A DNA stretch of 64,000 nucleotides from Balamuthia mandrillaris (GCA_031835245.2 JAVKOQ020000026.1:186001-250000); one strand, 5' to 3'. Positions 3,254-62,412 are shown, counted from the first letter of the stretch. Notes: generated from the sequence alone by a model not told the origin. Numbers and translations: made by a program.

Positions 3254-3883
3254 TACTTGCAAACTACCAATGGTTATATGTTTTGTTCACTTCTTTGCTT
3301 CCTTCTTTCCCTGCTCTCTATTTCATTCTCTCCTCTGCTCTCCTCCCTGTCCCCCGTTCCCCTACTCTTTATCTTAGGAGGGTCCTGACCACGCCGAATC
3401 ACTGCGGATCCTTCCAAGGCATACCCGCAGCAGTGGCTGCACATGCCAACGAGGGCCGTCGCCCTTCCCTTCTCTGCACCTCCTTCCTTCCTTCCCCCCC
3501 CCCCCCAAATCCTTTCTCTCCTCTCGTTGCCTCAGGAAACTACTCTCTTGAGGTAAGGAGTTTATTATTCTAAGGAATAAGGACTTTATTCTTCCTTATT
3601 GAGACTTTGAAACGATTTTTTGGTTTTTCTGGGCCTGGGCCTTGATTTTTAAGGCCAGTCGACACAAAACCCCGAAATCTCCCGGAAAACAACGAATACG
3701 GCCCAGGCCTTGGGTTTGAGAATCCCTCATTCGAGCAGCCTGCCAATAGCAAGCTTGCAATGCTAAAAGTAACGGGTGCGCCTTTTCGTGCTCCTTTTTT
3801 TTTTTCGAACTTGGTGTTAAATTTTTTTTATTAAAAAAGAAAGGTCTGGCAGGCGAACGCTTTGTAGCTCGACTCGTTCAAGC

Positions 3884-5990
3884 ATGCAGATGAGAGGCTT
3901 GTTTGTCTTGGTTGTGATTGGCGTCGTGTTCACGGCCCGAACCCTGGCCCAAAACAGCTGCGGAGGAGAGGCTCGCATAACGGAGACCACCATCCTCCGT
4001 TCTGACTGCAGCGGTTCTCATGCCTCTGGATTTGGTATCGTTTTCTTTTTCCTACGTCGATCTTTGCCATCTTCTCTCTTATCTCTTTCTCAACCCTTAG
4101 CTCCCCTTTCGCTCTTCTAATGGCATATTCTTTTGCATGTGAACGAAAGTTGATGAGCAAACAACAAGCAGCTATATCACCGCATCAGCTAAAGGGGCAT
4201 ATGCTCACGGCTATGGTTCGTAAAATATCTGTTGTCGCCTTCAAGTCCACCTGATTCAGCTGTTAACTATCATGCTGGCATTGTGCAGCTGTTGATGGCT
4301 ATTTGGAAGCATCTTCCGAAGGCGCCTTTGTAGCAGGAAATGGTTGTGTTGGCTTCCTTTCCCTTTCTCCGATTCTCTCTCTCTCTCTCTCTCGCTCCCT
4401 TTTTTCGATTCCCTTACATCAATCTTTTGCTTTATTCATAACATTATGTGCCTCTCCAGTCAACGATGCGACCATAGTAGCAGCTGACTCTGGATCGATC
4501 GCTCTGGGTTATGGTTTGTACTCTCTCCCTCCCTTCTCTCCTCTCTCTCCTCTCTCTTCGCTGAGATTCTATCATTACAACAGCTTCCTCTGGAGGACGA
4601 ATCTTATCTTCCTCTGATGGTGCCCTTGCTAGGGGTTACGGTACGTACAAACGTTATCCACAGACAATTCACGCTCTCTCTCTTTTCTCTCCTTCTCCCC
4701 ATCTTCGCTGAGCTTCTTTCATTACCATAGCTACCTCTGGAGCAAGAATTGAATCGGGTGACAGTGGTGCCCTTGCAGGGGGCTATGGTACGCGCACCCG
4801 TTTACCACAGCAACACTATTCTTATGTATGTATCATCAACAGCCACCGATGGAGGATTAATACTGGCCGACAATGACGGAGCAGTCGCCTTGGGATATGG
4901 TGAGTGAATGAACAAAGAAAGCCAAATAACGCCACAATGACTAACCACATACACAACAGCCACAACCAACAGTACCATTGAAGCTGGTGATAATGGTGCC
5001 GTTGCCATGGGATATGGTAAGTGAGAGCTTATTTTCCGTTTTTAACTGCGTTGATTGTCTTGTTTGGGGTTTGCGTTTTTGTTTCGGTGAGTTTCAGGTG
5101 ATTGAACGAGTGTTCTGTTGTTACCCTTGCACAGCCGAAAATTTTGGACGCTTGGAATCCTTGGAGGATGGCTCCTTCGCTCTGGGTTATGGTTTGTTGA
5201 ATTTGTTTCTATTTAGAAGTGTTTAATTTCATGGGCGCTGGTGGTTTGCTTTTGAAGGAAGGAATGGCACGACTAACCCAAAGTATGTGGTTCACCAGCC
5301 TTAGATAACTCATCCATCTCCGCCACGGGGGATGGTGCTTTTGCTCTTGGGAATGGTGAATTCCCACCCTCTCAATCTCCCTCTCCATCTCTATTGTCAT
5401 CTCACGGGTTTCATTTTGGCATTTGACAGCGGGAGATAATGCGCGGATCCTCGCTACCAACGAAGGCTCTTTTGCGGCAGGAATTGGTTTGGCGTTCTCT
5501 CTCTCTCTCTCTCATCACTCATATCTCCTCTTCTCTATAATGCAGCGAGGAACGGGATCTGGCATCCGAGCACCTCGGCGCTATTGCCCTTGGCATCAAT
5601 GTCGCAACCAGTTTTGATGGTCAAACGGTGGTAGGAATATGCAATGATCCAGCAGTAGACTTGGCTCTTGATACTGCGTTCAGCGTGGGAGTGGGCGCAT
5701 TCTCCACGGCAAGCGGTTGCACTGCCTCGGACACGGGCCTGGTGGTGGATAACCAGGGTAACCTCTACGTCAAAGGCAACGTGTTCGTTCAAGGGGCCAC
5801 AATCTCGCCCAACCAGGCCAATGGCATGCGCAGAAGCAGCGACGACATCAACACCGAAGACCTCCAGACTCAAGGAATCAGAAGCAGCCGAACTACCATC
5901 AACCTGATGGAGGCAGTCGAAAGGATTGCCCTTCTTGAGGCGAAGCTCTGCAAGCTTGTTGGAGACTGCCCCCATCAGGCCGCCAACTAA
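3884..5990 (+). CDS. Secreted beta-solenoid/adhesin-like repeat protein, copy A (12 exons, about 389 aa if an apparent 1-nt deletion at 5554-5556 is corrected)
   Basis: Signal-peptide exon 3884-4034. Phase-1 repeat exons 4150-4215, 4289-4342, 4460-4513, 4584-4640, 4731-4787, 4843-4899, 4960-5016, 5135-5191, 5299-5355, 5430-5486. Last exon 5546-5990. All introns GT-AG. Confidence 0.8.
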
Positions 5991-6411
5991 AAGAGCATTC
6001 CCTCCCAAAAGACCTAACGAGAAAAAGAATGACCTTGGGTGTTGTTACCTGCTAAGGAATAATATTATATTATGTGGTCTTTTCGCCTACACTCAACTTC
6101 TTCTCCGCTGCCCAGATCGATGCACATTGCCTCACTGCTTCCTCTACGTCCTGGAGGACCTCATAGCACCTCTGGTGATACAACGAATACGAGCTTGTTA
6201 TGTCCTACGCCGTGGACGGCTATGGCGAGGACAGATTTTCTGTTACGGAAGGTCTTTTCGAAGCACAATGAAAAAATGCCTTTTCGCCCAACAACAGAGA
6301 AAGAGAAAGCTCAAAACGAGTGAAGTGAGCATCCGGCACTCCCTCAGCTGCGCAAACATTTGTTTTTGTTTCTACCGCCTCGTCCAGGCACACGTAAGGT
6401 TGACGACAAAC

Positions 6412-6949
6412 ATGCCCACCCCAGGCTGTGTGCCTTTGTTTGTTTTGGTGGTTGCGATTGGAGTTGCCTTCCCGGCCCGAACGCTGGCCCAAACAAGCTG
6501 CGGAGGGGTGGCCCGTATCACGGGGACCACCGTGCTCCGTTCTGACTGCAGTGGTTCTCATGCCTCTGGATTTGGTACCGCCAAAACCCCTAGTTGAGCT
6601 CTTCTCTCTTCTCTCTTTCTCATGGGCTATTTCAGTCACTCCCTTCTCTTTGCCCTTCGCTCTTTCTCATCTCTGCGCACTTGTAACGAGCATTCTCTTT
6701 AATGTGAACAGTTGATGAGCAAACGGTGACCAGTTACATCGTGGCCTCGGGTCAAGGAGCCCATGCTTTCGGCCTTGGTTCGTATGATAATTGTTGTGGG
6801 CTTGTTAAAAAAACCGAGTTTCTTCGATTAACTGTTCCGCTGGTTTCTCCTTGTTCAGCTGTAGATGGCTATTTGGAAGCCTCCGATGACGGCAGTGTTG
6901 TGGCTGGATATGGTTTGCTTGGCCTTCCTTCCTTCCGCTCCCTCTCCCT

Positions 6950-6997
<48 letters not shown>

Positions 6998-9691
6998 TAG
7001 CAGCCATGGTTTGTTTGTTTTACGGGTGGCGGGTTACTTTGCTTCTTCTATTCCGCTTCTGATGGTGAATAACAAAACCTGATAACCATCGCGCATTCAT
7101 GCGTCTAGCTCGGACCAGCTCGGAAATCACATCAAGCGGGGATGGTTCCTTTGCCTTGGGGTATGGTAAGTTTGGATATTGTACGGAAGGGACAACTTTA
7201 GTAACCCAAACGCTATGGCCTTCCAGCCTCTGATAACTCATCCATCATCGCCAGAGGGCAAGGCGCTTTCGCTTTTGGTCATGGTGAATTCACTCCCTAT
7301 CTCTTTATCTATTTTCATCTTATGAGCATCGTTTTGGCATTTGTTAACAGCAAAGGATAATGCTCGTATCGTCTCCACCGAGACCGGTTCTATAGCCGCA
7401 GGATTGGGTTTGTACATGCACTCTCTCCCGGTCGTTTGTTGTGTGTTCTTCATCCCGTTCCTTCGTTCTTCTCAACACCCTTTCATTTCTTTTGTGATAC
7501 CAGCAAGGGAAGGAAGAATAATCGCGGATGCCGATGGAGCAATCGCTCTGGGTTATGGTTTGTACTCTCACTCTCACTCTCTCTCTCACTCTCTCTCTCA
7601 GCTAAGCATCCTCTATTACGATAATAGCTGCCTCAAAAGGAGAAATCTGGGCTAGGTCAGACGCCGCATTCGCTTGGGGTTATGGTATTGCATCAGTTAA
7701 CGATAGGAACCAAGCAAAGGGAACATCTGCAAAAAAAAACAAAAAAAAAAACAAAAACAAAAACAAAAAACAAAAAACAAAAACAAAAACAAAAAACAAA
7801 AAACAAAAAACAAAAAACAGTCCATGGCTGCTAACGTTTATAATTGTTCTCTTCACAAAGCGGAAGACGGGCGTATTCTCGCATCTGACACAGGAGCAAT
7901 CGCTTTGGGGATGGGTTTGTTCTCCACCACCTCCAGCAGTTTTGGTTTTACGTACACGTTTCTTGCTGACCGATGCCACTCGCCTTTTTCGATTGTAACA
8001 ACAGTCACCGGTTTTGGTCAGGTAATATCTGAGGATAACGGATCATTCGCTTTGGGAAATGGTGAGTAAAACAACAACAAAGACAATTCATACCTGACTA
8101 GCCACATGTACACTGCAGCCGACACCAACGGCACCATAGAAGCGAGCGGTGACGGCGCCTTTGCTATGGGTTTTGGTGAGTGGAGGGTTATTTTTTTTTT
8201 TTTTCCAAAGGCTTTGGGAACATTTTCTGCATGTCTTTTGTGTTTTGTGTTATTGGTTGGGTGAATGATTGTTTGGTTTGAAATGGACGCACAGCCATTG
8301 ATTATTCGGACTTGTTCGCCGGGGGTGAGGGCTCCTTCGCTATGGGTAGTGGTATGTTTTTTTTTTTTTTTTAAATTTGGAAGCTTCTGTTCCGGCATGG
8401 AGTTAACTTCCTTTAACCGAACTTTCTTTTCACAGCCTATGATAGCTCCCGTATTCGGGCCCTCAAGGACGGAAGTCTTGCAGCTGGTCGTGGTTTGTAG
8501 GTGGTTTGTTGCGTGCATTAATCTTCGGTTCTCAAAGTTGCCCCTTGTTTGTGTTTGTGTTGTTGTTACCTCTTGTTTGCTTATTTAGCGTTTGATTATT
8601 CCACCATCCAAAGCGATGGAATTGGAGGCAGCGTGGCAATGGGTTCCGGTTCGTCTGTCTTTATGTGAAGATCTCATGTTGCCGGTCTTGTTTGAGTTCT
8701 CACTTCTGTCATTTTCTTTCTCACCACCTATCAGCATCAGCGTTCAGCCAGCTTGATGCAAGTGGTGAAGGCTGTTATTCTGTGGGGAGTGGTATCCCAT
8801 TCTCCTGACCTTTCTCTGTTTGACTCTTGGCCCTCAGCGAATGCTTTCTAATTGCTTAATGCTTCCTGTTAACGACAGCCCAATCGAACAGTTCCATCAC
8901 TTCAGTGACCGCTGGTGCATTTGCCATGGGAGCTGGTAAGTTTTGCTATTGACTGAAGGAACAACAGCACGACTAACTCAAATTCTGTGGGTAACCAGCC
9001 TTTGCCAATTCATCCATCCTCGCAACTGCATCAGGCGCTTTCGCCGTCGGTTTTGGTGCACGACCTCTCCCTGTCTCCCTCTCAATCTCTACAGTTTACT
9101 CATGAGTTTCGTTTTGGCACTTGACAGCTTTCGGCGATGCCCGAATCCTCTCCAACTCGGAGGGCGCTATTGCGGCAGGATTGGGTTGGTTTTTTGCTTT
9201 CTCTGTCTCCTCTCTCGCCCTGTGGGAGTTAACATTGCGATGCAGCGAGGAAAGGGGATCTCACAGCCGAGCACAAAGGAGCCATCGCTCTTGGCACCAA
9301 TGTCCAAACAAGTTTTCCCAGTCAAGTGGTTGTAGGTGCATGCAACGATCCGGCGGTAGACTTTGCTCTTGATGCTGTTTTCAGCCTGGGCGTCGGAGCT
9401 TTCACCTACGCAGATGGGTGCACTTCCACAGACACGGGCATGGTGATGGATAACCAGGGTAACCTCTACGTCAAAGGCAACGTGTTCGTTCAAGGGGCCA
9501 CAATCTCACCCAACCAGGCCAATGGCATGCGCAGAAGCAGCGACGACACCAACACCGAAGACCTCCAGACTCAAGGAATCAGAAGCAGCCGAACTACCAT
9601 GAGCCTGATGGAGGCCTTCGAAAGGATTGCCCTTCTTGAGGCGAAGCTCTGCAAGCTTGTTGGAGACTGCCCCGATCAGGTCGCCAACTAA
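6412..9691 (+). CDS. Secreted beta-solenoid/adhesin-like repeat protein, copy B (19 exons, 526 aa)
   Basis: Exon 1 is 6412-6574. Repeat exons: 6712-6777, 6859-6912, 7109-7165, 7227-7283, 7351-7407, 7504-7557, 7628-7684, 7861-7914, 8005-8061, 8119-8175, 8295-8351, 8436-8492, 8589-8648, 8735-8791, 8879-8935, 8999-9055, 9128-9184. Last exon 9246-9691. The spliced length of 1581 nt is an uninterrupted ORF. Confidence 0.87.
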
Positions 9692-9963: not shown

Positions 9964-10174
9964 ATCCCCAACACGAACCAAAAAAAAAAAGACGACCCGA
10001 AGAAGAACCACACCACAAACAGGGGAGGGGTTTGATTGATTGATTGATTTTTTTTTCCCAAAGGGATTGGGGGGAAAGGGAGGGTGGTTGCTTTTGGCCA
10101 CGTCTCGTCCTTTGCTTTTTTTTGTTTCCTTAAAGGAGAAGGAAGGAACCGTCCCTCTCTCTTTGCTTGGTTGA

Positions 10175-10210
<36 letters not shown>

Positions 10211-10265
10211 AGAAAACAAAAAACCAACAGTAATTAATCGATTAAACCTCCCGAATACAAGTAAA

Positions 10266-10765
10266 ATGGGAGAAGAGGGGACGACTGTTGTGGTGGGCGG
10301 TGGGGAGGGAGGCAAACTGTCGCTAGGAGAGGAGAAAGAGAGGCATGCAAGATTCCTGGCGGACCAAGAGGAGGAAGCGGAGCGAGTCTTCGCGGAGGAG
10401 CACAAAAAGGAGGAAGGGCAACTCGAAGCAGGCGCTGCCGGCTGCCCTTTGCTTCGGAGTTTATCTAGGGAGCTCTGCTGCCTTGTGGCCACTTACTTGC
10501 CGCCCGAGGACCTGGCCCGCCTGGCCCAGACGTGCCGAAGGCTGAGCCTGGTGGCCAGGTGCGTGCGGCAGAGAGCCATCGCCCTCCACCTCTGCAAGGA
10601 GCACAAGGACGTTTGGCACTCCAAGGAAAATTTTGGGGACTTTAGCTTCAAGGAGCGGTCCCTCAGTCTCAGGCAGGACGGCACCTTTGTCTTCAAGTAC
10701 GAGGAAGAGTGGGCCACCGAAGACAATTATCAGTACGTACCATTTCTTGCTCTTTTCTCTTCCTT

Positions 10766-10797
<32 letters not shown>

Positions 10798-11412: not shown

Positions 11413-13006
11413 TCAGAAGACGACCATTTTCTTGCGATCCGCTTTTATCTTTAGCCGAGTGCTGAGATGCTGTTCTCACAACATTAGAACCAGCTGCGAA
11501 CACAAAGAACGTAAACAGAAACACGCCAGAAAATCATTACCTTTGTGTTACTTTCCAGCTGTGCCTTTTGAGCTTCTAGTTTGTGGATCTGCCGCTTGAT
11601 GGAAGAAGCTAGCTTTGGGTCTCTTCCTCGGTTCCGCTGCAATGACTCTTGCAACCTCTCCAAACGAAGCTCCAGCTCCGTCATCGCTTTCTTCCTCCGC
11701 TCAATGCCCTCTTCCAATTCTTCTTCTTTCATCTTCTTCAACCGCCGTTCCTCCTCTTCTCTCCTCTTTTGCTTTTGTTGTTCGCTTTCCGACTCTGACA
11801 TCAAAGTTTTGTTGAGAATGCCAAAAACGTTTTCTCTCTCGGCCTCTTTTTCTCTTCTTTTTGCTGCTTCATACTTTTGTTTGTTGCGTAGTTTCTCTTT
11901 CTTTCTTTTCTTCCTTCTCTGCTCCTCTCCTGCATCTTCTTCCTCACCATCCTCTTCCAACCTCCCTCTCTTTCTGTCCTCATGTCCCAGTCCCAACAGC
12001 TGTTGCTTCATCGAAGGAGCAGCCAGACTTAGTCCCAGTGGTCTCGCTATGCCTTCACCTTGCTTTCCTAAGCCTGCTCCCTTTTTGTAGCCCATCTTTG
12101 CCAACATTCGCGAAGCAAACCCGGTCGTATGCTTCTCCCAATAAGCAATATCTTTGTGCTCTGACACTTCTTTGCTTTGGTGTTTTGTTGTAGAAGAAGA
12201 AGAAGAAGAAGAAGAAGAAAGAGAAGATGAGTCAAACAGGGCTTCTCGAACTTGACTGTGTTTCAAGGTGACGCCTTTGAACAGAATGTCCTCTGCGCGG
12301 ACTTCGGCTTCCAGCCCACCAAAGGAAGAGAAGCGGACCATAAAAGTGCCTCCCTCCGTTTTGTAGCAAAGGCGAGCGTCGTGCCATCGTCTATCTTTGG
12401 GACAAACGGCCCTGCAGTTGTTCTTGCTGTTCTCTTCTTCCACTTCCTTCTTCGTTGTATCGATGGTTTGCGTGTTTGTTGGTGGGTCGTTCCTGACTAT
12501 ATGAAGGCGAAGAAGAAGAACAAGAACAAGAAGAAGAAGAAGAAGAAGAAGAAGAAGAAGAAGAAGAAGAACAAGAAGAAGAAGAAGAAGAACAAGAAGA
12601 TGTTAACACGCCGATGGTAGCCGAGGTACAAAAGATGAAAAGATGGAAACGTACTGGGTAGGACTTCCCACAGCTCGTCCTCTCCATCCGCGAACATGTC
12701 AGGAACGTCCACCGATGTTCGTTTCCTCTTCTCCTCCTCCTCCTCCTCCGCTTCCTTTTCCTCCGCGGCCTGCAGGAGTTCGGCGGTGAGCTGGATGACT
12801 TCCAGCAATTCCTGCTGCGCTTGCAGCAGGGCCTCCCTCTCTTCCCCTTCTTCTTCTTGATGTTGTTGTTGCCCGCTCTTCTTCAGGAGCTCTTGCAGCC
12901 CTTCCATCTGTTCCCAATGCTGCAGCAGCTGTTGGCGTAGCCGTAGCGTGGTGGTGGCGGAGCCGCCGCTCCCCTCCTCCTCCTCTCTTTCATCTTTTTG
13001 TTGCAT
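11413..13006 (-). CDS. ZGPAT: G-patch domain protein, ZGPAT-like
   Basis: G-patch WEKHTTGFASRMLAKMGYKKGAGLGKQGEGI, a Tudor-like segment, an N-terminal LQAQQELLEVIQLT helix, and a last exon ending RKKMVVF* resembling the ZGPAT C-terminus. No CCCH finger seen. Confidence 0.7.
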
Positions 13007-13299
13007 TTTTTTGTTTGCTTTTTTGATTTTTTCAGAGTTCCCTAATAGGGTGGATAATTATTTGGAACCTAATAGTAGTTAATCATGGACAAATTGTGTA
13101 GTATTATTGAAGAAGTTGAGTTGAGTTGTGTAAGAAAAAGATCAGAAAAATTTTACTATAACGGTTTTTCTTTTTTGTTTTCTGAGAAAGCATTACCTTG
13201 CTCTCCCATACGATTATTTTTTTTTTTGGCTGGCTTCCTTGCAAAGACTTGGCTTATTCTTGGCCGTTCGTCCAGTTCTATCCGACGAGAAGAAGAAAA

Positions 13300-14475
13300 A
13301 TGAAGAGGCAGCAGAGAACGCGCAAACAACAACAAAGGGGAGAAGAAAAGAGGCCTCCCAACATGAAGAAGAAGAAGAAGAAGAAGAACAAGCACAAGAA
13401 GAGGCGGCCGCCAGGCTCTCGTGCCAACACGGCGAAAGAGCAAGCCCAAGAGTTCACCATCGAAAGCTACGCGAAGCTGGGCCTCGGCAACGGTCGCGGC
13501 GGGTGCCTTTGCAACCTCGGCGCCTCCGACTCTTGCCTCTACTTTGACGTGCTGCCCCCCGCCCTGGCCTCCTCCGCCGCCTTTGGCGCCCTGCTGGCGG
13601 GGGAGGTGCCCTGGGAGGAGCTCTTCAACCGAGGGAGGGCCGTGCCTCGCCTGGTCTGCACGCAAGGCGCCCGCACCGCCGCCGTGGAGCCCATCTACCG
13701 CCACCCCACGGACCGCCACTCGGAGGTGCAGCCATGGACGCCCACCGTGGCGGCTCTGCGGCAAGCGGTGGAGCGACACCTGCAAGAGCAGGAGCCGGCC
13801 AGGTCTCATCCGCTGAACCACGTGTTGATCCAATTGTACAGAGACGCCACGGACTTTATCAGCGAGCATGCCGACAAGACGTTGGATGTGCTGAGAGGTT
13901 CTCCCATCCTGAACCTCAGCTTGGGGGCGTCGCGCGTGATGGAGCTGCGCCCCAAGCAAGGAAACGAGGAGGAGGAGGACAAGGAGGAGGGTGAGGATGG
14001 AGAGGGAGCACAGATGCTCCAAAGGCAGAGGATCACCCTGCCGCACAACTCTCTGTTCGTTTTGGGGTGGGAGACGAACCGAAAGTTTCGGCATTCCATT
14101 CCAAAGGAGGATGAGGCGCGTGTGCCAACGGAGAGGAGGGAGGATGAGAACAGAGAGGAAGGCCGGCGCATCAGCCTCACCTTTCGGAGCATCGCCACGT
14201 TCCGGAGGTTCAAGGATGGGAGGCTGTTTGGGCAGGGAGCCAAGTGTAAAACGGAAAAAGAGTTGGACGATGAAAGAGGAGAGAACGCACAGGAGACGGA
14301 GGAAGAGGAGGCGGCCAAGCTGTTGTCGGCGTTCCACAGAGAGAACTCGAGGTCGGATTTTGAGTGGGAGAAAGCGTACGCGTCCGGATTCGATGTCATT
14401 GACTTCAGCATCATCAATAACGGCAGTAACGAAGATGCAAAACCAGATACCACTGTTGTTACAAAGGAAAGCTAA
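13300..14475 (+). CDS. AlkB-like 2OG-Fe(II) dioxygenase, intronless
   Basis: NHVLIQLYRD..D.ISEHADKTLD (HxD), LSLGASR, RHSI (distal His), RISLTFR. Confidence 0.85.
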   Translation: MKRQQRTRKQQQRGEEKRPPNMKKKKKKKNKHKKRRPPGSRANTAKEQAQEFTIESYAKLGLGNGRGGCLCNLGASDSCLYFDVLPPALASSAAFGALLAGEVPWEELFNRGRAVPRLVCTQGARTAAVEPIYRHPTDRHSEVQPWTPTVAALRQAVERHLQEQEPARSHPLNHVLIQLYRDATDFISEHADKTLDVLRGSPILNLSLGASRVMELRPKQGNEEEEDKEEGEDGEGAQMLQRQRITLPHNSLFVLGWETNRKFRHSIPKEDEARVPTERREDENREEGRRISLTFRSIATFRRFKDGRLFGQGAKCKTEKELDDERGENAQETEEEEAAKLLSAFHRENSRSDFEWEKAYASGFDVIDFSIINNGSNEDAKPDTTVVTKES

Positions 14476-26480: not shown

Positions 26481-27395
26481 ATGACCATGTTTCTTCTCTT
26501 TTTCTTCTGCCTCGTCACACTGCTCTTCTTCCCAACAGCAACTGCTGCAGCGTTGTTGGTACTACTTTTTTTTCCGTTCATCACCATTCTCTTCTCTTCG
26601 TCGTTCTCTGCTTCGTTCTCTTCGCTTCATCGTTCTCTTCTCTTCTCTTCTCTTCATAGTTCTCTTTATCGTCGTTCTATTCATCATTCTCTTCGTTCTC
26701 TGCTTCGTTCTCCTCTCTTTGTCGTTCTCCTCTCTTTGTCGTTCTCTTCATCGTTCTCTTCTCTTCATCGTTTTCTTGTCTTCCCTCTACTACTCTTTGA
26801 TTCTAATCACACTTTTTAAACATAAAGGGTGAAGAAAAACAGTTGCCACAGTCTTTGGTTGTTCAACTGGACGAATGGGGAGCTGACTCTTTTCGCGTTC
26901 GCATCACACCCAATGCTCAGGTGGAAGATCCTCCCATTCAAGCCCTGCTGCTCTCTTCTTCTTATGCTTCCTCAGCTTCTCATCGCTTTGTTGTGGTTCC
27001 GACCCAACAACAACAACAAAGCACGACCAATACCACAAACGGCAACCTGATCGCCTCGTTGGACTCTTCCACAGGCCTTCTTACCTTCGTCCGAAAGTCT
27101 GACGGTCGCGTTTTGCTTCGTACGCTTTCTCAGCATTTCTCTTCACATTGGAATGAGAAACAGCCGAAAGAGAAGAACACTTTTTCTTCTTCGTCGTCGT
27201 CTGCGTTGTTGGGTGCGGCTGTTAGCTTTGCGGCAAATGAGAAAGAGCAAGTCTATGGCCTTGGAGAGCATCGTACTGGCAGACTGCAGAACAAACCCAT
27301 TTTCATAAGCTTTCAACAGAGTCAAGTGTGTCTTTCTCTCCTTCTCGTCTCTTGCTGTTCCTCTCCCTCTCTCCCTCTCCCTCTCACTCACTCAC

Positions 27396-27434
<39 letters not shown>

Positions 27435-29601
27435 CTTTTTTGTATCAAGAACAACACTAAAACTTTAAATCTTGTTAGTTATATACACTGTCAAGAGGAG
27501 CAGATATAAGTATTCCTTTTTATCAATCTTCTCTTGGCTATGGTTTCCTTTGGAATTTGCCTTCTTTTGGGTATACCCACTTTCTTCTTGTTCTTCGTCG
27601 TTTTGCTCTGCTTTTTACTTTCATCTTCTTTCATGGTTAATCATACTGCCATGAACAAATTCAAGGTATGTAAATATAAGCGAAGAGCACACCACATGGT
27701 ACTCCAATAGCACCTTCCAGATTGACTATTGGATAACTACCACACCTGATTCTGTTGCCCCATCTTCTCCTCCCTATCCTTATCTATTGCAGCGTTACGT
27801 TCATGCTACTGGTATCAATGCTTCAGTTTTAATTATTATTTCTTTACTCTTTCTTCCCGTTATTTGACGACCAATTTCTTATCCTCTGTTTCAAAGGCCA
27901 TCCTCCTTCCTTTCCATCCTTTGCAAGTGGTTTTTGGCAAAGCAAAAACAGATACCGCAACCAGACGGAACTGCTGTCCATCGGCGCTGGATATCTCAAG
28001 CTCAACTTACCAGTTTCCGTGCTTGTCATTGACTACTACCATTGGAAGAACTACGGAGACTGGTCCTTTGACCATTCTTGTTGGCCCGATCCTTCTTATA
28101 TGACGCAGACGCTTCACGATGTCTATAACATCGATCAAGTGATGGTCTCCGTTTGGCCGGTGGTTAGCAACCAGAGTCATAACTTTGAGGTGATGAAGGA
28201 ACGTGGTTTCCTGGTGAAGAATGCCGAAGGAGAGGCATGGCCTTGTTATGCCGGTAGCAATTATGTTTACGATCCCTTTCATCCTGATGCGCGTGCTTTT
28301 GTGTTTCAGCAGCTGAAGAGCGGATACTACGATCATGGAATTAAGGTTACACCCTTGTTTTTTGCTCTCTGTTTGTTTGAACTTATATGAGAAAATAGGT
28401 TTATTGGTTGGATGCAGATGAGCCAGAACGAAAACTGCCGGATCAAAGTGGCGAGTATTACTACCACATGGGACGTGACTTGCAAATAGGGATGGCCTTC
28501 CCACGAGTCCACCAGCAAATGGTGCATGATGGCTTGACCTCCTTACATGAAACAGATTTCATCATGTTGAGTAGAAGTGCATGGGCAGGTACCCGTCTTT
28601 TTCGTTTTTTTTTTTCTTATGCGCTTTTGTATTTTCTGTTTGTCATTCCTTTCTTGCTTTTCTGGTTTTCTTTCTCCGCTCTTTCCATCCCAACAGGAAC
28701 ACAACGACTGGCAGCAGCTGTCTGGAGTGGAGACATTCCATCCACATTTGAAGAATTGAATATCCAGGTGAGAGTAGCTCAGAACATGGCAATGAGCGGC
28801 ATCTACTGGTGGACAACCGACATCGGGGGTTATGTGAATGGCAACATTAATGATCCCCTCTTTAGAGTATGTCTTGCTTTTGTTCATTTCTGTTGATTCT
28901 TTGCATACGTTTAGTACAAAGATTTGAGGAACCTAACAAATTGTTCAATGATACCAAACTGTTAGGAATTGGTCGTGCGTTGGTTCCAATTTGGAGCGTT
29001 TTGTCCGCTGTTCCGATTGCATGGCAAACGCAGTCCCATCCAAAACGTTACTTCTTGCGGGCCAACTGGAGCACCAAATGAGATATGGCATTTCGGAGAA
29101 CCTGCTCTCTCCATTATTTCTGACCTCATCCATCTTCGCGAGAAGTTACGACCTTATATCATGAAACAGGTTATATTCTTTTTGTCTTTCTGTCTTTCGG
29201 TCTTCTCTGCTTTTCTTTTTCTGATATAGTGCCAACAAACAAAAGATGAGTATAGCTTCTCTTAATGGAGCTCCTCTACTGCGACCGATGGTTTATGCGT
29301 GTGCAGAAGTGGAGTGCCAACAAGCAGAAGACCAGTTTATGTTTGGACCGGATTGGTTGGTCGCTCCTGTGATGCAGCCTTATGCGTCTTCTAAAGCAAG
29401 GAGTGTTTATCTTCCGTCTTCTGAAAATTGGGTTCATTATTTCACTGGAAAGACCTACACAGGAGGACAAACTGTCACTATGTACGACCTAACCTCTTTT
29501 TTCACTTTACCCCTGTCTCTCTTTTCCTGACCCACTTGTTTGCCAGTGAAACACCATTGCACAGCTTTCCTCTCTTTTTCCGACAACAGCGCCACAATTA
29601 A
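26481..29601 (+). CDS. Secreted GH31 glycoside hydrolase (alpha-xylosidase-like)
   Basis: Signal peptide, YGLGEH, GFWQSKNRY, VIDYYHW..GDW, WLDADEPE (nucleophile), VWSGDI, WWTTDIGG, RWFQFGAFCPLFRLHG, QFMFGPDWLVAPV. Confidence 0.92.
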
Positions 29602-29874: not shown

Positions 29875-30514
29875 ATGTGGCGCTACTTCTCCTTCTTTAC
29901 CAGCCTTCTTCTTATCTTTACCTCATTCTCTGGTTCGTAGTGTTTTTCTTTTCTTTCTTCCTTTCGTTCTTATCGTTTTCTTCTTCGCCAGCTGCTCAAA
30001 GATGTGTTATGTTGGAAGAGTCCATGCACAACCAAATCGATCCCAAGTGTTTGCCTCTTCTTCTGGACCAAAACCAACCTATCTACATACCCGCCAACCA
30101 AACGTTGGCCGATCTCACCGAACAAGCCTCTGCCTCTACTATTTTTTTAGGAGTTTGGGTGCCGCCTGCCTGTCGTGACGCTGCTCTTTTGTTGGCGTGT
30201 CATTACTCGTATAAGATCTGTAACGGCTCTTCCGGTGTGTATTCTTTCTTCTTCCTTGCTTCTTCTTTCTCCCTTATGTGTGCGTAACTTACTGTTTCTT
30301 AACTTGCCTTCATCAGCGGTTTCTCCGTGTTTGTCTCTTTGTAACTCTATGTCAGCTGAGTGCACGGAGTACTTCGAGTCCGTTGGAAGGGCCAACATGA
30401 TCCCACCCTGCACTACTTTCTTATTTCCAAATTCTTCCTGTAACCCAGGAAGCACTGCTAGTAAGCTCTCATTCTTGTCTTTATTTCCTAATCTAACTTC
30501 TTCTCTCGCTCTCG

Positions 30515-30547
<33 letters not shown>

Positions 30548-32535
30548 CTTATTGCTTCTCGTTTCTTTCCCCAAAAAAACAGAGGTGGGTTACAGCCAAG
30601 CAGACTGTCCCTATCCAACCGTCTACAATCCAGATATTACCGACGATATCTGTGCCCTTCCCTGTCCAGGCACCATCTACACTGAGGAACAATGGGACAC
30701 CCTTTATTCTGTCATGACTCTCTTTGGTGCCATATCTTTGGTCGCCTCCACCTTCTACGTCGTGACGAGCTTCTTGAATCCTGATACGAGACGATTTCCT
30801 GTCAACGTTTTGAACTTCTTAACTCTTTCGACCATTCCGGTTTCATTGGGACTTGTCTTTGGAGTATTTGCTGGAGGATCAGAGAACATAATTTGTTCAG
30901 ACAAGGGGGAGTATCAAGGAGTCGGGCGAGGAGATGCTGGTGGTCTTGCTTGCGTTCTTCAAGGTGCGTCTATTGATGCTAAATGTTTTACTTTTGTCTT
31001 GTCTATGTTTTATTTTCTTTTTTCTAAAGTGAGATTTTATATAGGAATTTTGTTGGTATGCGGAGGATTATGTGTTGCTTGTTGGTGGACCATCGCAGCT
31101 TTCAACGTACCTGTTCTTTTCCTTCTTGTTTCTTTTATTCTTCTGCTTCTTCTGCTTCCTCCTCATCCTCCTCTTCCTGTTCTTTTTCTTCTATGTTTGT
31201 CCTTCTTACTAAATCGCTTTTCTTCAGTTGGTCATGTTGATTGTTGTTCAAGTATCTCGTGATAAGCTCCACAAATTTGAAAAATGGTAACTTGTTCACC
31301 TCATTTTTCTATCGTTCTTTTGCTGCTTATTCTATTCTGCAGTCCTAACGTTCATTAAAAAACAGGTATCACATCATAGGGTGGACACTACCAGTACTGC
31401 TTACCATCATTCCTTTGGCCGCAAAGAAGATACAAGCCTCTCCTACCGTTTCGTGGTGCTTCATTTATGATGAAGATACTGATTGGTGGATTTATGGCAA
31501 CTTTTATATTTTATGTATGCACTTTTTTCTCTTGTATGTAGTGTTTTTATTTCCTATTTTAACGAGCCACGTTGTTCCCTCCCCTTCTCTCTCTCTCTCA
31601 TTAGTTATTGGAAGCTGGTTGTTTGGGTCGCTGCTTATCTTGGGTGTGGTCATTACCATTCTTCGGGTAACTTTTTGTTGCATTTATATTCTTCATTTCA
31701 GGTGTTAACAAACATCGCCATCAATAACAGAGAAGTTATCAGTTTGACAAGAAGGGCAACTTGCCTTTTAGGGTGGTCATCCGTTTGTTGGTGATGATGT
31801 GTCTCTTTTGGGGTCTGACCGCCTTTCAGATTGCCTATCGCTTCTACGGCTCTGCTATCAAAGACGACGTTACCGAAGCTCTTGAAGAACAGGTTTGCTA
31901 TTATCTTTTCCTCCTCTTTCTTTTGCTTAACTTTTCTTGTAAAATCAATATTGACTTGAACAATACAGGTCGTATGCAGCGCGAGCACAGGAACGGAATG
32001 TGAGTTAAAGGAGAAACCCAACTTTGGGTTTCTCCTTTGGACTGTATTAGTGATGACCAACTTGGGAGCATTCGCCTTTCTGACGATCGGTTGCACCAAA
32101 ACCACGTTTAACTTTTGGCGAGGACTCATAAAGGATTTGTGGAGGGCGAAAGGCCGCGGCAATAAGATTCAGGTTTGGAGAAATTACACCATCACGAGAG
32201 ATCGTGCTCGTTCACGCTCCGCGTTTAACAGCAATGAGACAAGTACGTTCTTTGTTGTTGTTGTTGTTGTTGCTTTTTTTTACATTCTCTTTCTTGTAGT
32301 TTCTTACAACACTTTGAATTTGCTGCTGTCTCTTTTAAAAGGGTCTCGCACACCAAGCGGATATAACATGGGGGACAGCCCAAGGCAGCACCTGGAGCAA
32401 ATGGGGCTGACGGAGATGTACGCGGGACCGGACTCGGCTGCACCTCTATCCCAGCCGGAGGATGAGGTGGACAGCTCCATCGAGGAAGGAAAGAACTCGC
32501 ATTCCCCTTCGGACTCTGCCAGCTCAGAGGATTGA
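29875..32535 (+). CDS. Frizzled/Smoothened-like 7TM receptor with cysteine-rich domain (Dictyostelium Fsl-like)
   Basis: Signal peptide, CRD-like C..AALLLAC.YSY..C..PC.SLC......C, CPYP..CALPCP, TM1 then RRFP, YHIIGWTLP, WCFI, seven hydrophobic segments. Confidence 0.8.
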
Positions 32536-35445: not shown

Positions 35446-35926
35446 TTAAGCATAGTACTGGAGGCTCTTCTTCTTCTTGGCCACGACTTGGTTGATGCCC
35501 TCCATAAAGTCCTCGTGCTGCAGCTCGGTGGCCTCCCTTCGGAGGGCCAGCATGCCGGCCTCCACGCAGACAGCCTTGAGCTGCGCGCCGTTAAAGTCAT
35601 CCGTGCAACGGGCCAACTCCTCAAAGTTGACCTCCGGGCTGACGTTCATCTTTCGGGAGTGGATGCGGAGGATCTTTTGACGGGCCTCCTCGTCCGGCAG
35701 AGGGAACTCAATCTTACGGTCCAGACGACCGGAGCGGAGCAACGCTGGGTCGAGAATGTCAATTCGGTTCGTTGCTGCTATCACTGTTTTGTTTTGTTTT
35801 GTTTTGTTTTGTTTTGTTTTGTTTTGTTTTGTTTTGTTTTGTTTTGTTTTGTTTTGTTTTGTTTTGTTTTGTTTTGTTTTGTTTGGTGTTGTGAGCAAAA
35901 GAAAGAACCAAAAGAAAAAAAGGAGA

Positions 35927-35957
<31 letters not shown>

Positions 35958-36961
35958 GAGAAGTATGGAGGAAGAGAAACCTTTGATGCTTGTATCACTG
36001 CTAAAACCATCCAACTGGTTCAACAATTCCAACATGGTCCTCTGCACCTCTCTGTCTCCAGACTTCTCGCTGTCAAAGCGTTTTGTGCCAATGGCATCCA
36101 ACTCGTCGATAAAGATGATAGCGGGAGACTTCTCCTTGGCCAACGCAAACGCATCACGAACCAGCTTGGCGCCATCACCAATGAACATCTGGACCAGCTG
36201 AGGACCGGCCAGCTTCAAGAAAGTGGACTTTGTCTGAGCGGCGCAAGCTCGGGCCATCAAGGTCTTGCCGGTGCCTGGAGGGCCGTAGAGCAACACTCCC
36301 TTGGGGGGTTGAATGCCGATGGTATCAAAGCGGTCCTTTTGGGCGATGGGCAGGACTACCGCCTCCACCAGCTCTTGGATTTGTTTTTCTAGACCGCCAA
36401 CGTCGTTGTATTCTTCGGTAGGACGTTCGTCGACTTCCATAGCTTTGACTCGTGCGTCATATCTGATTGTGTTAAAAGTTGATCAACGGAAGAAAGCAAG
36501 ACTAGAAGGTGAGAAAGGAAACATACTCTGGAGGCAATGTGTCGAGAACGAGATAACTGTCTTTGTTGACACCAATAAGATCTCCAGGAGTCAATTTGGT
36601 GTGATCTACCAGTCCTATCACTGGCAAAAAAATGGTCTGAGTGGAAGTGAGTGTTAGTAAGATAAAAGCAAGTATTTTGCAAAGAGAGAACGAGAAGAGA
36701 AAAGAGAAGAGAAGAGAGAGGGCACAATGGAAGAGAAGAGAGAAGAGAGGAAGAGAAACAAAAGAACAGTGAAGTGAAGAATATGCATACCTTTCTGTCA
36801 GATGTTTTAATCACAGCACACTTGTCAGTGTGGGCATCAGCCTCCATGCTGCTGCCGTCTTCAGTGACTTCAGGCTCCGCATCAATCAACTTGACTCGTC
36901 AGAAAAAAGAAGTGAGTGAATGAAGAATACTGATTTTTTCAGATCTACAAACGAAAGAGAG

Positions 36962-37015
<54 letters not shown>

Positions 37016-37309
37016 CTGTACCTCTACAACGTTGGCTACAAGGTAAGGCAGTTGCTTGTTCAGTTTGATCTTCTCTTTGTTTTCGTTCACTTTTTCCTTC
37101 AACGCGGTTTGTTCATGGTGCAGGCGGTTGATCTCGTGCCTCATGATCTGAATCTCCCTGTCCAGCCCCCTCGTCCTGGCCGCGATCTCCTCCACAGGGG
37201 CGTTCAACACGTCCTCTGGCAGCTCCACGCTCTCCTCCTCCTCCATCGCCTCCTCCAGCGTCTTGGGCTTACCCTGTTCTTTGGGGGGTGCTGCTGTCGT
37301 TGTGGCCAT
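35446..37309 (-). CDS. RPT5: 26S proteasome regulatory ATPase subunit 6A
   Basis: [73 protein letters not shown], HbYX tail LQYYA*. Confidence 0.97.
35786..35884 (+). repeat. Intronic (GTTTT)n pentamer microsatellite
   Basis: Directly visible in an RPT5 intron. Confidence 0.92.
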
Positions 37310-37658
37310 TGCTGCTACGTTTTCTCTACTTTTTTTTTTTTGTTAATCTTTTTTGGGGGAGGAAAAAAAAATAATTTTTTTTGGACTCGAGTCGCTCTGC
37401 CGCCTCCTTTGGTTTGTGAGTTTTTTTTTTTTGCCAACAAATCCTCACGCTGACTTTTTTGTCGACTTTAAGGGAATTTTCGATAATCATGCCGACGTGA
37501 AAAACTTCCGCATCCACAAAATGATCATTCTTTGGCAACAAAACTCATTTGCTCGCCCTTGGCAGAGGAAGGAAAAGACTTCCTGGCAGCCAGAAGGAGG
37601 AGGGAGGATACGGAAAGAAGGAGCAAAAAAATAGGGTTCGTTCTTTTGAATCTCGCGG

Positions 37659-38836
37659 TTAATAATTGACATACTTTTCTCTGACCCTACCACTCAAAAA
37701 CTTATCCACCTCGGTGAAGTTCTTGCACGCTCCCGAGCCCTTCAATCCTCCTCGTTCCTCCGCGCAGGGCACCTCCTTGCGCGTTTGGGCAAGCGCCTGC
37801 AACCGCTGCTGCATCCTCTCTCGCCCAAAGCGCTCCACCCGCTGGTCCAACTTGGCCATCGCCGCCTCATACAACCGAATGTCCAACTCCAAGAACTCGC
37901 GCAGCTTCTCCTTCACATCCGACGCCAAGCTCTCCACCTTGGGTCTTCCTTGCACCACCCCATAGTTGCTGTAGTTCCTGACCACCTCCGGGCTGATCAC
38001 TCCATCCGCTTCCAACAGTATGAGGGACTCGTCGAAGCGCTCCGCTACCACCACCATCTCGAAGGTGTCCAACACCGCCAGTAGGCGCTGGAATTGCCGC
38101 TCCGTGTGTAACGTGCGAAGGGTTCTCATGCCGCGATGTCCCTTGCGAACAAAGGCCTCAATGTCGTTGCCCCACTTGACGTTGGCCACGCGCAACTGCT
38201 TGTAGTAGAAGCGAGACATGAAGCGGTCCAGCGGGTCCCGTTGGGAGAAGAGCCAGTAGCACAGCTCCTTCTTGAACTTCTTCTCAGCGGTGCGGTTGAA
38301 CTCCAACATGGGCAAGAGCTTGTCGATCTCCACGTGGCCGCTGAGGAAGTCAGCCTTCACGCGCAAGCCACCCTTCAGCTCCTGAGAGAAGGTCTTGTTC
38401 CAAAGCTTGGTCGTGCCCTCCAAGATATGGTTCAGAGTGGTTCCTCCTGTCTTTTGCAGATGCCAGAAGAGCAAACAACGGTCCAAAGGCTTTGGCGGGG
38501 GTTCGTATGGCTGTTGCGGAAGATCTTTGTAACCTAAAGAGTGCCGCCGACGCCATGAAGCCAAGGAAGCAGAAGCGTTTGAGGAGAAGGCGGTGACGGG
38601 AGAGGAGGATAGGGAGAACGTCGACGAAGAGGTGAGAGAAGAAGGGAAGAGGAGGTAAGACAGCAGCCACAGGAAGTAGACCGAGAAGGCCGCGATAAAG
38701 CTTTGGTGAGGAGAGAGTAGAATTGTTGAAAAACAACAATGGTTTAGAGCACCGGTCGAAAGAAAAAAAAATGCTGGTTAACGCACCAAAAGTAGCCACA
38801 GTTCCTGAGCATGGCGGGAGAATACTCTTTTCCCAT
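37659..38836 (-). CDS. Type II membrane Golgi-type sulfotransferase (Gal-3-O-ST/Sulfotransfer_2-like), copy 1
   Basis: 5'-PSB FWHLQKTGGTTL, 3'-PB RDPLDRFMSRFYY, ERFDESLILL, LDIRLY. A short 5' exon plus one intron gives the TM anchor CFIAAFSVYFLWLLSYLLF. Confidence 0.85.
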
Positions 38837-39138
38837 GGTCGTGTAAGCGTCGTTCAAAAAACGAAAATAAAAATAATAACAAAACGACGGTCGTTTTGAA
38901 GCAACAACACAAACAAACGTGGGTAACAGACAAGGCCACTTCACCAAAAAAATCCTTAGCAGCACTGCCTGCCACCTTGGGTGTGTTTGAATTCTCTGCT
39001 TTAGTTACCTGGCTTGGAGCAAACAAAAGGCCATTATGTCAACAACAACAGACAACCACTATAATGCATTCCAGTAAATATGGGTATGTAATTAATTAAT
39101 TACCGGGATCGTTGGCCCACAACCGGTAGTCTCGTGCA

Positions 39139-40380: not shown

Positions 40381-40410
40381 TGTTTTGTTTTTATGTTTAT
40401 TGTTTCCGTT

Positions 40411-44178: not shown

Positions 44179-44345
44179 TTCTTCCTTCCTTCGCGCCTCT
44201 GCTCTCTCTTTCTTTCTTGTCACAACAATTATTTGTGGTTGCGTTTTAATTTGGGATGCATTACCCTCGTTTAGAAAGACCTACGAGGTTGGTAGTCGGC
44301 CTGACTTTGCTTGAATAACTCAAAGAAGGCGAGCATGATATTAAT

Positions 44346-56522: not shown

Positions 56523-56746
56523 TCTTTTTTTTTAATGTGTTTGTGTTTCTTTTCTTCTTTCTGCGACGCTTCACTTTTTAGTCGATTATTTTGACCAATC
56601 ACAACATGCTTAGATCGACATTGATCTAACCAATGAAAATTCAAATATGTGCGCTTTTTTTTTTTTTTTTGGTTTTGCAGAGAAAAAAGAAAAAAAGAAT
56701 AAAGAATAAAGAAAAGAAAAGAAAGAAACGAAACAGCAGCACCGAG

Positions 56747-61890: not shown

Positions 61891-62412
61891 GTTTTTTGCT
61901 CTATGTACTAGTTTATTTTTTTTGTTGTTGTTGTTCAGTTAGAAAGGGATAGCGTCGTCGGCCAAAGCCCAAGCAAGAGCAGCTGTCCGACACGGTGTGC
62001 GAATAGCAAAAGAGATTCGTGAACCATTACCTACCTTCCGGCCCCGCGGCCTTTCGTTGTGCGCTGCTGTGTTCCTTTGGGTCTTTTTCAGGGTAAACAC
62101 TATCGGGACGACGTGGAAATTATGTGATCGACGGCTCCGATCATTGATCTCAGCACATTATTTTTGATTAATTGATTGAAAAGAAATGGCAAGGGAATGT
62201 AAGCCAGCCAGCAACGTCCCTGCTCTTCCCTGCTCCCTTTGGCGGGGGAAAATAGGTGTCGACAAGGACTGATGTCAAACCAACCCATTGCGCGTTGGTC
62301 AATTAATCAAGAACAGTGCCTAAGTTTGCTTAGGGGGAGCGCCTCGTGCCAAAACTCTTGCTCTTTGACCCTCTTGGGTGTCTTTTGCTCAAGAGCGTGC
62401 ACGCAGTCAGAC

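Follow-up and report, generated by a model that had tools for sequence, protein, structure and literature searches.

Balamuthia mandrillaris carries, within the 64,000-nt stretch of DNA analysed here (the window; GCA_031835245.2 JAVKOQ020000026.1:186001-250000), two neighbouring rows of very short exons, each of which appears to encode one repeat of a protein. What would genes of this kind encode, and is their product diversified by combinatorial splicing or by remodelling of the exon rows in DNA?

Two adjacent genes built from one-repeat exons

Gene A (3884-5990, plus strand) comprises 12 exons, 10 of them internal (66, 54 and 54 nt, followed by seven of 57 nt), and gene B (6412-9691) comprises 19, of which 17 are internal (66, 54, 57, 57, 57, 54, 57, 54, four of 57, 60 and four of 57 nt; Table 1). 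All 29 introns begin with GT and end with AG, and they range from 55 to 196 nt with a median of 84. The longest contains, past a CT tract, sequence resembling the intron downstream of A3 and B6. Every one of the 27 internal exons is in phase 1 at both ends, has a length divisible by three, and encodes a single 18-22-aa repeat within a near-constant size of 54-66 nt, just as a first-pass annotation had described, including the AG/GT borders and the repeats that it quoted. Its spliced model of gene B is likewise intact on paper, with 1581 nt encoding 526 aa and no internal stop. Using a motif picked after the exons had been seen, we counted 28 motif-bearing AG..GT exons in 3884-9691, compared with a mean of 0.015 and a maximum of 2 in 200 Markov shuffles; there were none elsewhere on the plus strand of the window, and two on its minus strand.

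Table 1. Features of genes A and B, numbered from the first nucleotide of the window.
Feature	Position	Strand	Remarks
Exon 0 of gene A, encoding an N-terminus like a signal peptide and a Cys-pair N-cap	3884..4034	+	possible alternative ATG at 3890
A1 repeat exon, 66 nt	4150..4215	+	
A2 repeat exon, 54 nt	4289..4342	+	
A3 repeat exon, 54 nt	4460..4513	+	homologue of B6
A4 repeat exon, 57 nt	4584..4640	+	
A5 repeat exon, 57 nt	4731..4787	+	A4 duplicate including flanking intron
A6 repeat exon, 57 nt	4843..4899	+	
A7 repeat exon, 57 nt	4960..5016	+	homologue of B10, mis-read in NCBI model
A8 repeat exon, 57 nt	5135..5191	+	
A9 repeat exon, 57 nt	5299..5355	+	A9-A10 block has homologues in B4-B5 and B16-B17
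A10 repeat exon, 57 nt	5430..5486	+	
Last exon of gene A, encoding a terminal rung, a neck domain with two Cys, a linker and a C-terminal helix	5546..5990	+	one base short
Exon 0 of gene B, encoding an N-terminus like a signal peptide and a Cys-pair N-cap	6412..6574	+	
B1 repeat exon, 66 nt	6712..6777	+	
B2 repeat exon, 54 nt	6859..6912	+	
Longest intron, 196 nt	6913..7108	+	between B2 and B3
Inverted repeat, left arm, 14 nt perfect (24 nt at 88%)	6996..7009	+	brackets B3-B7
B3 repeat exon, 57 nt	7109..7165	+	
B4 repeat exon, 57 nt	7227..7283	+	
B5 repeat exon, 57 nt	7351..7407	+	
B6 repeat exon, 54 nt	7504..7557	+	
B7 repeat exon, 57 nt	7628..7684	+	
Inverted repeat, right arm, 14 nt	7822..7835	-	
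B8 repeat exon, 54 nt	7861..7914	+	
B9 repeat exon, 57 nt	8005..8061	+	
B10 repeat exon, 57 nt	8119..8175	+	
B11 repeat exon, 57 nt	8295..8351	+	
B12 repeat exon, 57 nt	8436..8492	+	
B13 repeat exon, 60 nt	8589..8648	+	
B14 repeat exon, 57 nt	8735..8791	+	
B15 repeat exon, 57 nt	8879..8935	+	
B16 repeat exon, 57 nt	8999..9055	+	
B17 repeat exon, 57 nt	9128..9184	+	
Last exon of gene B (446 nt), encoding a terminal rung, a neck domain with two Cys, a linker and a C-terminal helix	9246..9691	+	

Some points of the first-pass annotation needed correction, among them the start of gene B, which lies at 6412. It described a shared C-terminal exon, but the two genes end in separate homologous copies, identical at 387 of 446 positions; and it held that the ORF track misses the genes completely, but the public NCBI models P0001 and P0159 contain most exons of both, in part wrongly joined. 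The start of P0001 is identical to gene A exon 0, and the models reproduce six of nine internal junctions in A and four of five in B among those that P0159 fully spans (junctions that probably derive from prediction on the same DNA). The last exon of gene A has 445 nt rather than the 446 of gene B, and the missing base, near the exon start, causes loss of the frame. Contigs from a DNA run of another study (X3) contain gene A without this shortfall, indicating either that the assembly is wrong here or that this strain carries a variant allele. The neighbouring genes (P-type ATPase, F-box-like and G-patch) are eukaryotic and contain introns, and a viral gene context was rejected on that basis. 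Judged by sequence, A and B are two tandem paralogous amoeba genes.

The products are predicted to be secreted, trimeric fibres

Both products are likely secreted-type proteins, as had been proposed from the sequence: the N-terminus is hydrophobic, no other hydrophobic segment is present, even at the C-terminus, and the gene B protein has five N-glycosylation sequons. An AlphaFold2 model of P0159 (37 sequences; pLDDT 81.7) ends in a soluble helix, and its best eight matches among 48,161 chains (VIA) were all YadA-type heads (Z 10.0-12.0, rmsd 4.2-5.4), including YadA itself (Z 12.0, rmsd 4.7, 139 aligned), BoaA (Z 11.4), EibD (11.1) and UspA1 (10.1), although Z scores of 10-12 are within reach of repeat proteins by common arrangement alone. 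Ice-binding and curli solenoids scored 7.7-8.7. Neighbours in the ESM Atlas carry YadA_head and Peptidase_S74, the repeat profile matched UspA1 weakly (E 1.3), and Foldseek returned nothing at E ≤ 0.001 from the PDB or viral models. A low-confidence, single-sequence model of P0001 (pLDDT 54) best matched TibA (Z 14.9, rmsd 3.7, 195 aligned), which belongs to a beta-helix class other than YadA-type heads. Overall, the models favour what had been envisaged, a predicted beta-solenoid with one rung per exon and a fibre- or adhesin-like fold.

The trimer model that had been suggested as a check gave a score of 0.84 for positions 24-165 of P0001, compared with 0.00 for the best of three controls, with at least 90% of contacts agreeing between runs and pLDDT of at least 82; this pass may stem from likeness to solved YadA heads. 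Among microbial proteins, 21 of 30 solved homo-pairs and none of 23 single chains attained the mark; the corresponding figures for eukaryotes are 17 of 29 and none of 30. In each of six exons the predicted interface coincides with positions -9 to -5 and -3 to -1, such that the conserved second half of the exon (G-A/S-x-A-x-G-Y/F) is predicted to pack within it and the first half to lie outside. Introns are predicted to fall at the turns between rungs; gain or loss of one exon would therefore add or remove one rung.

YadA-type heads (YadA, BoaA, EibD, CbpF, BpaC, UspA1 and AtaA) are the closest structural matches of the amoebal model, and, like them, the amoebal protein is predicted to form its trimer interface from a G-x-x-A-x-G strand. 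The heads differ in rung length (about 14 aa, versus 18-22 in the amoeba; PF05658 spans 27 positions, two copies), and the amoebal proteins have a eukaryotic signal peptide, Cys pairs, sequons and an intron at every rung. A trimeric autotransporter adhesin was rejected because there is no beta-barrel membrane anchor, the terminal helix is soluble, and the last exon and P0001/P0159 have no Pfam match.

Relatives form an unnamed fibre family

When 1.84 billion representatives were searched for further family members, 134 matched at E ≤ 1e-3, more Balamuthia loci and a Pellita catalonica transcript among them. The Pellita transcript encodes the same repeat and neck domain, and approximately 140 unnamed database proteins have the same 18-20-aa period (945 of 1689 motif spacings, with 26 at 13-15 aa). 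About a dozen of these relatives contain a neck segment homologous to the amoebal one, 15 of 78 scanned contain Peptidase_G2 or Peptidase_S74, 10 of 27 have matches to tail or pre-neck families of PHROG, and the N-terminus is hydrophobic in only 20 of 140. The metagenome fibres are single long proteins as called, some with an intramolecular chaperone of the phage tail-fibre or pre-neck appendage type, whereas the amoebal members end in a short helix, and a Pfam scan found neither chaperone in them. The amoebal proteins have no sequence match in Pfam, NCBIfam, PHROG or PDB; for P0001, P0002 and P0003 no Pfam family appeared at E ≤ 10, hence neither PF05658 nor Ice_nucleation, and an ice nucleation protein was rejected. 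The family tree is unrooted and weak.

Exon rows are remodelled in DNA

Among 406 intron pairs, the best-scoring were A8-9/B15-16 (z 15), A9-10/B16-17 (12.3) and A9-10/B4-5 (10.5), followed by A3-4/A4-5 (8.7) and B4-5/B16-17 (8.0). The paralogue P0002 has its repeats in the order of B1-B10 plus one extra, A3-like repeat located where gene B has its 196-nt intron. Between the last exons of A and B, dS is 0.60 over the first 65 codons and 0.04 over the last 77, and the 3' ends have likely undergone gene conversion. Together, the exon-plus-intron duplicates, the extra P0002 rung and the converted-looking 3' ends support diversification at the DNA level, the form of exon shuffling that the first-pass annotation had foreseen. 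The difference in repeat number is, by sequence comparison, one between paralogues, and P0002/P0003/P0040, the second locus, may represent a diverged haplotype.

Twelve homologous exon pairs (217 codons) gave dN 0.39 and dS 0.81, which points to coding constraint, or purifying selection, on the micro-exons. Six conserved columns gave 0.07 and 0.67, but they were chosen by low entropy and only the all-column ratio is free of circularity. Overall diversifying selection was not seen in the pooled variable columns (dN/dS 0.65); pN/pS was 0.81 (95% 0.61-1.04) in the outer half of the repeat, and dN exceeded dS in one of the 12 pairs (A8/B11).

Splicing is probably constitutive for the most part

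In arthropod Dscam1, an extracellular recognition protein, tandem homologous exons form clusters from which one exon each is chosen. The proposed resemblance to Dscam was not supported: A and B lack alternative clusters with docking/selector pairing, all exons fit one open frame, and nhmmer and PWM scans of the introns found no pseudo-exons and no spare non-coding or antisense exons. Three RNA runs contributed 4, 4 and 0 reads on A/B, with no splice joint listed. According to two studies, exon skipping is raised in bilaterians alone among 65 species (PMC6142364) and intron retention predominates in Acanthamoeba (PMC12404691), and constitutive splicing is favoured a priori on these accounts. 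Introns B2-3 and B7-8 contain the two arms of an inverted repeat, perfect over 14 nt, whose duplex amounts to -34.3 kcal/mol when the flanks are included. Its 14-nt length was attained in 5 of 300 shuffles; it is the single complex one across both genes and brackets five exons, and gene A has no comparable one among perfect inverted repeats of at least 12 nt.

Discussion

With a probability of roughly 0.66, we favour tandem paralogues with one rung per exon that are spliced mostly constitutively, encode secreted, YadA-like trimeric binding fibres, and undergo exon remodelling in DNA. Frame-neutral repeat exons would be joined into one message, the product would trimerise as a beta-roll fibre, and the rows would have been reshaped as exon-plus-intron units were duplicated, lost and, likely, gene-converted. 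The fold may come from a prokaryotic or viral gene, onto which signal peptide, disulfides and introns would have been fitted within the amoebal lineage. The fibres likely bind an outside partner; candidates are prey, substratum, cell coat and host matrix.

Alternatively, combinatorial skipping of frame-neutral exons could allow one gene to produce a repertoire of fibres with varied rung sets, as in schistosome MEGs or brown algal ROCO genes. Phase symmetry does hold for all 27 internal exons, but it is also the automatic outcome of duplicating one exon-intron unit. The inverted repeat could allow B3-B7 to be looped out together, yet gene A has no comparable one among those perfect over at least 12 nt, and one letter within the left arm is changed in run X3. 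Up to seven skip variants are described in MEGs (PMC4015677), and ROCO LRR exons undergo shuffling as well as alternative splicing (PMC11378527); against this, the introns here are short, spare, decayed or inverted exons are absent, and unequal rung sets would presumably upset an in-register trimer. We consider such skipping unlikely, and slightly less likely still a domesticated viral or bacterial trimeric fibre, with an intron per rung, in which shuffling and RNA-structure-guided skipping (of B3-B7, for example) would create a variable secreted repertoire for anticipatory recognition in a protist.

The fibres could instead be structural, forming a coat or cyst wall or an ice- or surface-ordering solenoid; their length would then follow from the number of rungs, and variable residues would be tolerated without a specific ligand. 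The ratios at variable columns and in the outer half, which indicate relaxed rather than positive selection, fit this reading, as do the ice-binding and curli matches, the thick cell coat of Pellitida, the group of the transcribed relative (PMC6492006), and the mention in a preprint (10.1101/2025.02.25.640156) of a 63-intron Balamuthia transcript whose repeating exons are ice-nucleation-like. Adhesin heads are nevertheless the top structural matches, relatives contain phage tail-fibre parts, Ice_nucleation is absent from the Pfam results, and all four listed differences between exon A8 and run X3 change the amino acid, making a purely structural role decidedly improbable. That A and B are decaying or silent relics, no longer expressed, is suggested by the shortfall in gene A of this assembly; its absence from run X3, the 29 canonical introns, an open B frame, purifying selection and the transcribed Pellita relative make this very improbable.

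The one-repeat-per-exon layout itself is already known from the LRRs of brown algal ROCO proteins, which are intracellular. The Ectocarpus and Saccharina genes likewise have one solenoid repeat per short symmetric exon, shuffled arrays, a conserved core and variable exposed positions (PMC3341825, PMC11378527); they differ in exon length and phase (72 nt, phase 2, versus 54-66 nt, phase 1) and in encoding LRR-GTPases that have sites under positive selection, spare exons of inverted and non-coding kinds and, as reported, splice variants, whereas the product of A and B is of secreted type and predicted to form a trimeric beta-roll, and the two genes lack spare exons and gave no overall sign of positive selection in the pooled columns. 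MEGs, according to PMC4015677, also encode secreted proteins with a signal-peptide exon and runs of short symmetric exons; their skipping is shown in transcripts, while in A and B each exon is a homologous rung of a predicted solenoid. In the literature searched we found no trimeric beta-roll of prokaryote or virus type on this layout in an amoeba. Two features known apart, repeat-per-exon shuffling (ROCO, MEG) and the YadA/phage-fibre trimeric beta-roll, are now joined. A prokaryotic or viral origin would mean that every intron was acquired later and multiplied along with the repeat, which would be a clean case of intron gain and exon duplication building a repeat protein. The locus also points to an unnamed family of 19-residue-rung fibres, with more than 100 database proteins and no solved structure. 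For B. mandrillaris, a human brain pathogen, it reveals a multi-locus family of secreted adhesin-like candidates, split and mis-joined in public annotation and unrecognised by Pfam, that may be tested as surface antigens, diagnostic markers, and feeding or adhesion factors.

Exon anatomy of genes A and B

The window is short-intron eukaryotic DNA, and the micro-exons described in the first-pass annotation were all recovered by a scan for open stretches that are bounded by AG and GT and are phase 1 at both ends. The 27 internal exons of the tandem paralogues A (A1-A10) and B (B1-B17) measure 54-66 nt, all multiples of three, and each encodes one repeat, or rung, of 18-22 residues; the introns, 55-196 nt long, are GT..AG in 29 of 29 cases. 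Spliced on paper, B is the intact frame that had been proposed (1581 nt, 526 aa). The micro-exon pattern is far beyond chance: the exon motif, which was picked after the exons were known, gave 28 hits against a mean of 0.015 in shuffled sequence. The last exon of A is one base short near its start in the assembly. Since contigs from X3, a DNA run from another study, do not have this shortfall, the species most likely carries an intact gene A. We regard the one-repeat-per-exon observation as real.

Eight ordinary genes share the window with A and B (see table), and none contains an array of this type. Two tandem Gal-3-O-sulfotransferase-like genes, both on the minus strand, form, with a Sulfotransfer_4 gene and a look-alike unmatched ORF, a small cluster around an MFS transporter, and a Frizzled/Smoothened-family membrane protein (PF01534) with a Cys-rich N-terminal region is encoded in this amoeba.

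Features of the window and their coordinates
Feature	Position	Strand	Remark
P-type cation ATPase	1423-3253		
Gene A	3884-5990		12 exons
Exon A8	5135-5191		
Gene B	6412-9691		19 exons
Inverted-repeat arm	6996-7019		
Inverted-repeat arm	7812-7835		
Linker with RR and SSDD	9518-9560		last exon of B
F-box-like	10134-10772		
G-patch	11484-12602		
2OG-Fe(II) oxygenase	13186-14475		
GH31	26807-28896		
Frizzled/Smoothened-family protein	30151-32535		
AAA ATPase	35446-37342		
Sulfotransferase cluster	37659-40410		
Sulfotransferase cluster	43015-45329		
Methyltransferase	55566-56531		
NAGLU	62203-63884		

Predicted fold and trimer

The N-termini of the A and B proteins are strongly hydrophobic, with no later hydrophobic segment, and the B protein has Cys pairs at the N-cap, the neck (the two-Cys segment encoded by the last exon) and the C-terminus, as well as five N-glycosylation sequons. 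Two NCBI protein models correspond to these genes: P0001, named Balamuthia mandrillaris, is letter-identical to gene A in nine of the ten repeat exons, and P0159 is the 3' portion of gene B. The proposal of a beta-solenoid with one rung per exon is supported by predicted structures of both. The single-sequence model of P0001 is a solenoid with two strands per repeat (pLDDT 80-93 at residues 61-150, poor elsewhere) that loosely matches TibA and many beta-helices, and the better model of P0159, built from 37 sequences (pLDDT 81.7), has YadA-type heads as all eight of its best matches among 48,161 chains (for YadA, Z 12.0, rmsd 4.7, 139 aligned). Foldseek returned no match at E<=0.001 for either model; YadA_head and Peptidase_S74 (S74) are present among ESM Atlas neighbours.

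A trimer model, also suggested in the first-pass annotation, scored 0.84 for three copies of P0001 residues 24-165, against 0.00 for the best control, with at least 90% contact agreement between runs and pLDDT of at least 82. The score mark was reached by 21/30 homo-pairs and 0/23 single chains from microbes and by 17/29 and 0/30, respectively, from eukaryotes, and the pass may reflect resemblance to solved heads. Each of the six repeat exons in the model contributes the same positions to the interface, -9 to -5 and -3 to -1 (numbered back from its end), such that the conserved G-A/S-x-A-x-G strand is predicted to face the other chains while the first half of each exon is not, and the intron position would fall at the turn between rungs. 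The protein would act like a YadA head but is not a trimeric autotransporter, because a beta-barrel anchor is absent from it. The last-exon linker, present also in A, carries a dibasic RR preceding SSDD. This site lies where chaperone-bearing fibres self-cleave; a host protease might, speculatively, trim the C-terminal helix at RR.

Family members and relatives

A family search of 1.84 billion representatives returned 134 matches, and the further members that the first-pass annotation proposed to look for include additional Balamuthia loci and a Pellita catalonica transcript (P0091), along with an unnamed transcript-type record (P0042) and unnamed database proteins. Balamuthia and Pellita both belong to Centramoebia (PMC6492006). 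A second tandem Balamuthia locus, on another contig, comprises a B-like gene (proteins P0002 and P0040) and an A-like gene (P0003), and other Balamuthia proteins among the matches are P0050, P0055 and P0039. The last, from a different contig, is 2919 aa long, has a signal-like N-terminus and is built from modules of repeats plus a two-Cys neck, 11 in tandem, several of them near-identical and ~258 aa long; here the amplified unit is the entire head-neck module and not the individual rung. A second motif is common to P0039 and two unnamed relatives that bear the Peptidase_G2 (G2) chaperone, P0004 and P0041.

Searches of Pfam, NCBIfam, PHROGs and PDB sequences with the amoebal proteins gave no significant match. 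The exon profile matched at least three times in 138 of 140 non-amoebal relatives, in which motif spacing was 18-20 aa in 945 of 1689 cases. A G2 or S74 chaperone lies at the C-terminal end of 15 of the 78 non-amoebal relatives scanned, and PHROG matches to tail-fibre or pre-neck families were obtained for 10 of 27 relatives and lay for the most part outside the repeats. The two-Cys form of the neck is common to amoebal members. One ESM Atlas cluster among the nearest by features is 91% eukaryotic, most commonly Haptophyta, with YadA_head in 13% of its members; similar fibres may occur in other protists.

Scans for the DNA context of relatives were blank for metagenomes (last exon), genomes (P0007) and viruses (P0010, P0008), as was tblastn of P0002 against phages. 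The matches of viral loci found via P0004 and P0045 rest on the G2 chaperone; among the contigs fetched, weak repeat matches occur in one only (L015/L082). A tree of neck segments (24 rows, including five of the 11 P0039 modules and excluding P0160), unrooted and with unsettled bootstrap, sets ten unnamed rows apart from the amoebal rows (97/98) and places two long-branch unnamed rows, in unsettled positions, among them. Because the context scans gave no source organisms and the tree is unrooted and weak, we treat a prokaryotic or viral fibre gene as the inferred ancestor.

Remodelling of the arrays

The exon shuffling that had been proposed is supported at the DNA level by copies of exon-intron blocks and by an extra repeat in P0002. 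Introns adjoining homologous exons of A and B are homologous too, the block A9-A10 has further copies at B4-B5 and at B16-B17, and A4 and A5 represent a duplication in place. P0002 keeps the order B1-B10 with one additional A3-like repeat after B2. The B2-3 intron is the longest in A and B and, after a CT tract, resembles the intron usually found 3' of an A3/B6-type exon, which is suggestive of loss of an A3-like exon by recombination between CT tracts; no decayed exons scored within it. Between the last exons of A and B, dS is 0.04 over the last 77 codons versus 0.60 over the first 65, a drop that probably marks recent conversion or unequal crossover.

With dN 0.39 and dS 0.81 (0.60 and 0.91 at variable columns), the repeat exons are under purifying selection overall, strong at core columns and weak at variable ones. 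Positive selection was not shown in them, hints at A8 aside: among the differences listed (40 of 71), A8 has four relative to X3, all amino-acid-changing, and its flanking introns on the same contig have one. That comparison spans 3800-7715, as far as exon B7, and some of its contigs may be paralogues.

The first-pass annotation alternatively envisaged combinatorial splicing of the exons, likened to Dscam. The likeness fails in layout, because the genes contain no clusters of alternatives and no spare or antisense exons, and we consider such splicing unlikely. The literature bears on it in both directions: exon arrays of this sort can be alternatively spliced, as in brown algal ROCO genes (PMC11378527), but exon skipping is low outside bilaterians (PMC6142364) and intron retention is the dominant mode in Acanthamoeba (PMC12404691). 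RNA runs X7, X8 and X9 gave 4, 4 and 0 reads over 3800-7715, from 12.9 million records each, too few to bear on expression or skipping; these eight reads supported no splice joint that satisfied the listing rule, and two X7 reads that connect intron-side positions of B and A appear to be unspliced paralogue sequence. The only hint of regulated skipping is a perfect 14-nt inverted repeat around B3-B7 (-34.3 kcal/mol with flanks; 14 nt reached in 5 of 300 shuffles), whose arms lie in the two longest B introns, each adjoining a simple-sequence tract. The 14-mer has no other copy in the window at <=2 mismatches, and X3 has one change inside one arm. The repeat could be an RNA stem, a small-inversion relic or a mobile-element relic.

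Relation to known systems

Exon layouts of the same kind as in A and B are described for ROCO LRR exons of brown algae (PMC3341825) and for schistosome MEGs (PMC4015677), and the YadA-type head is a known kind of fold, although the A/B rung is longer. One sentence of a preprint (10.1101/2025.02.25.640156) mentions a 63-intron Balamuthia transcript whose exons repeat in a manner reminiscent of ice-nucleation repeats; this transcript may belong to the A/B family. Searches of the accessible literature on Balamuthia with trimeric autotransporter, with YadA or with broader terms turned up no case of this layout and fold combined in an amoeba. What appears new, within that literature, is the pairing, in an amoeba, of a known exon layout with a known fold.
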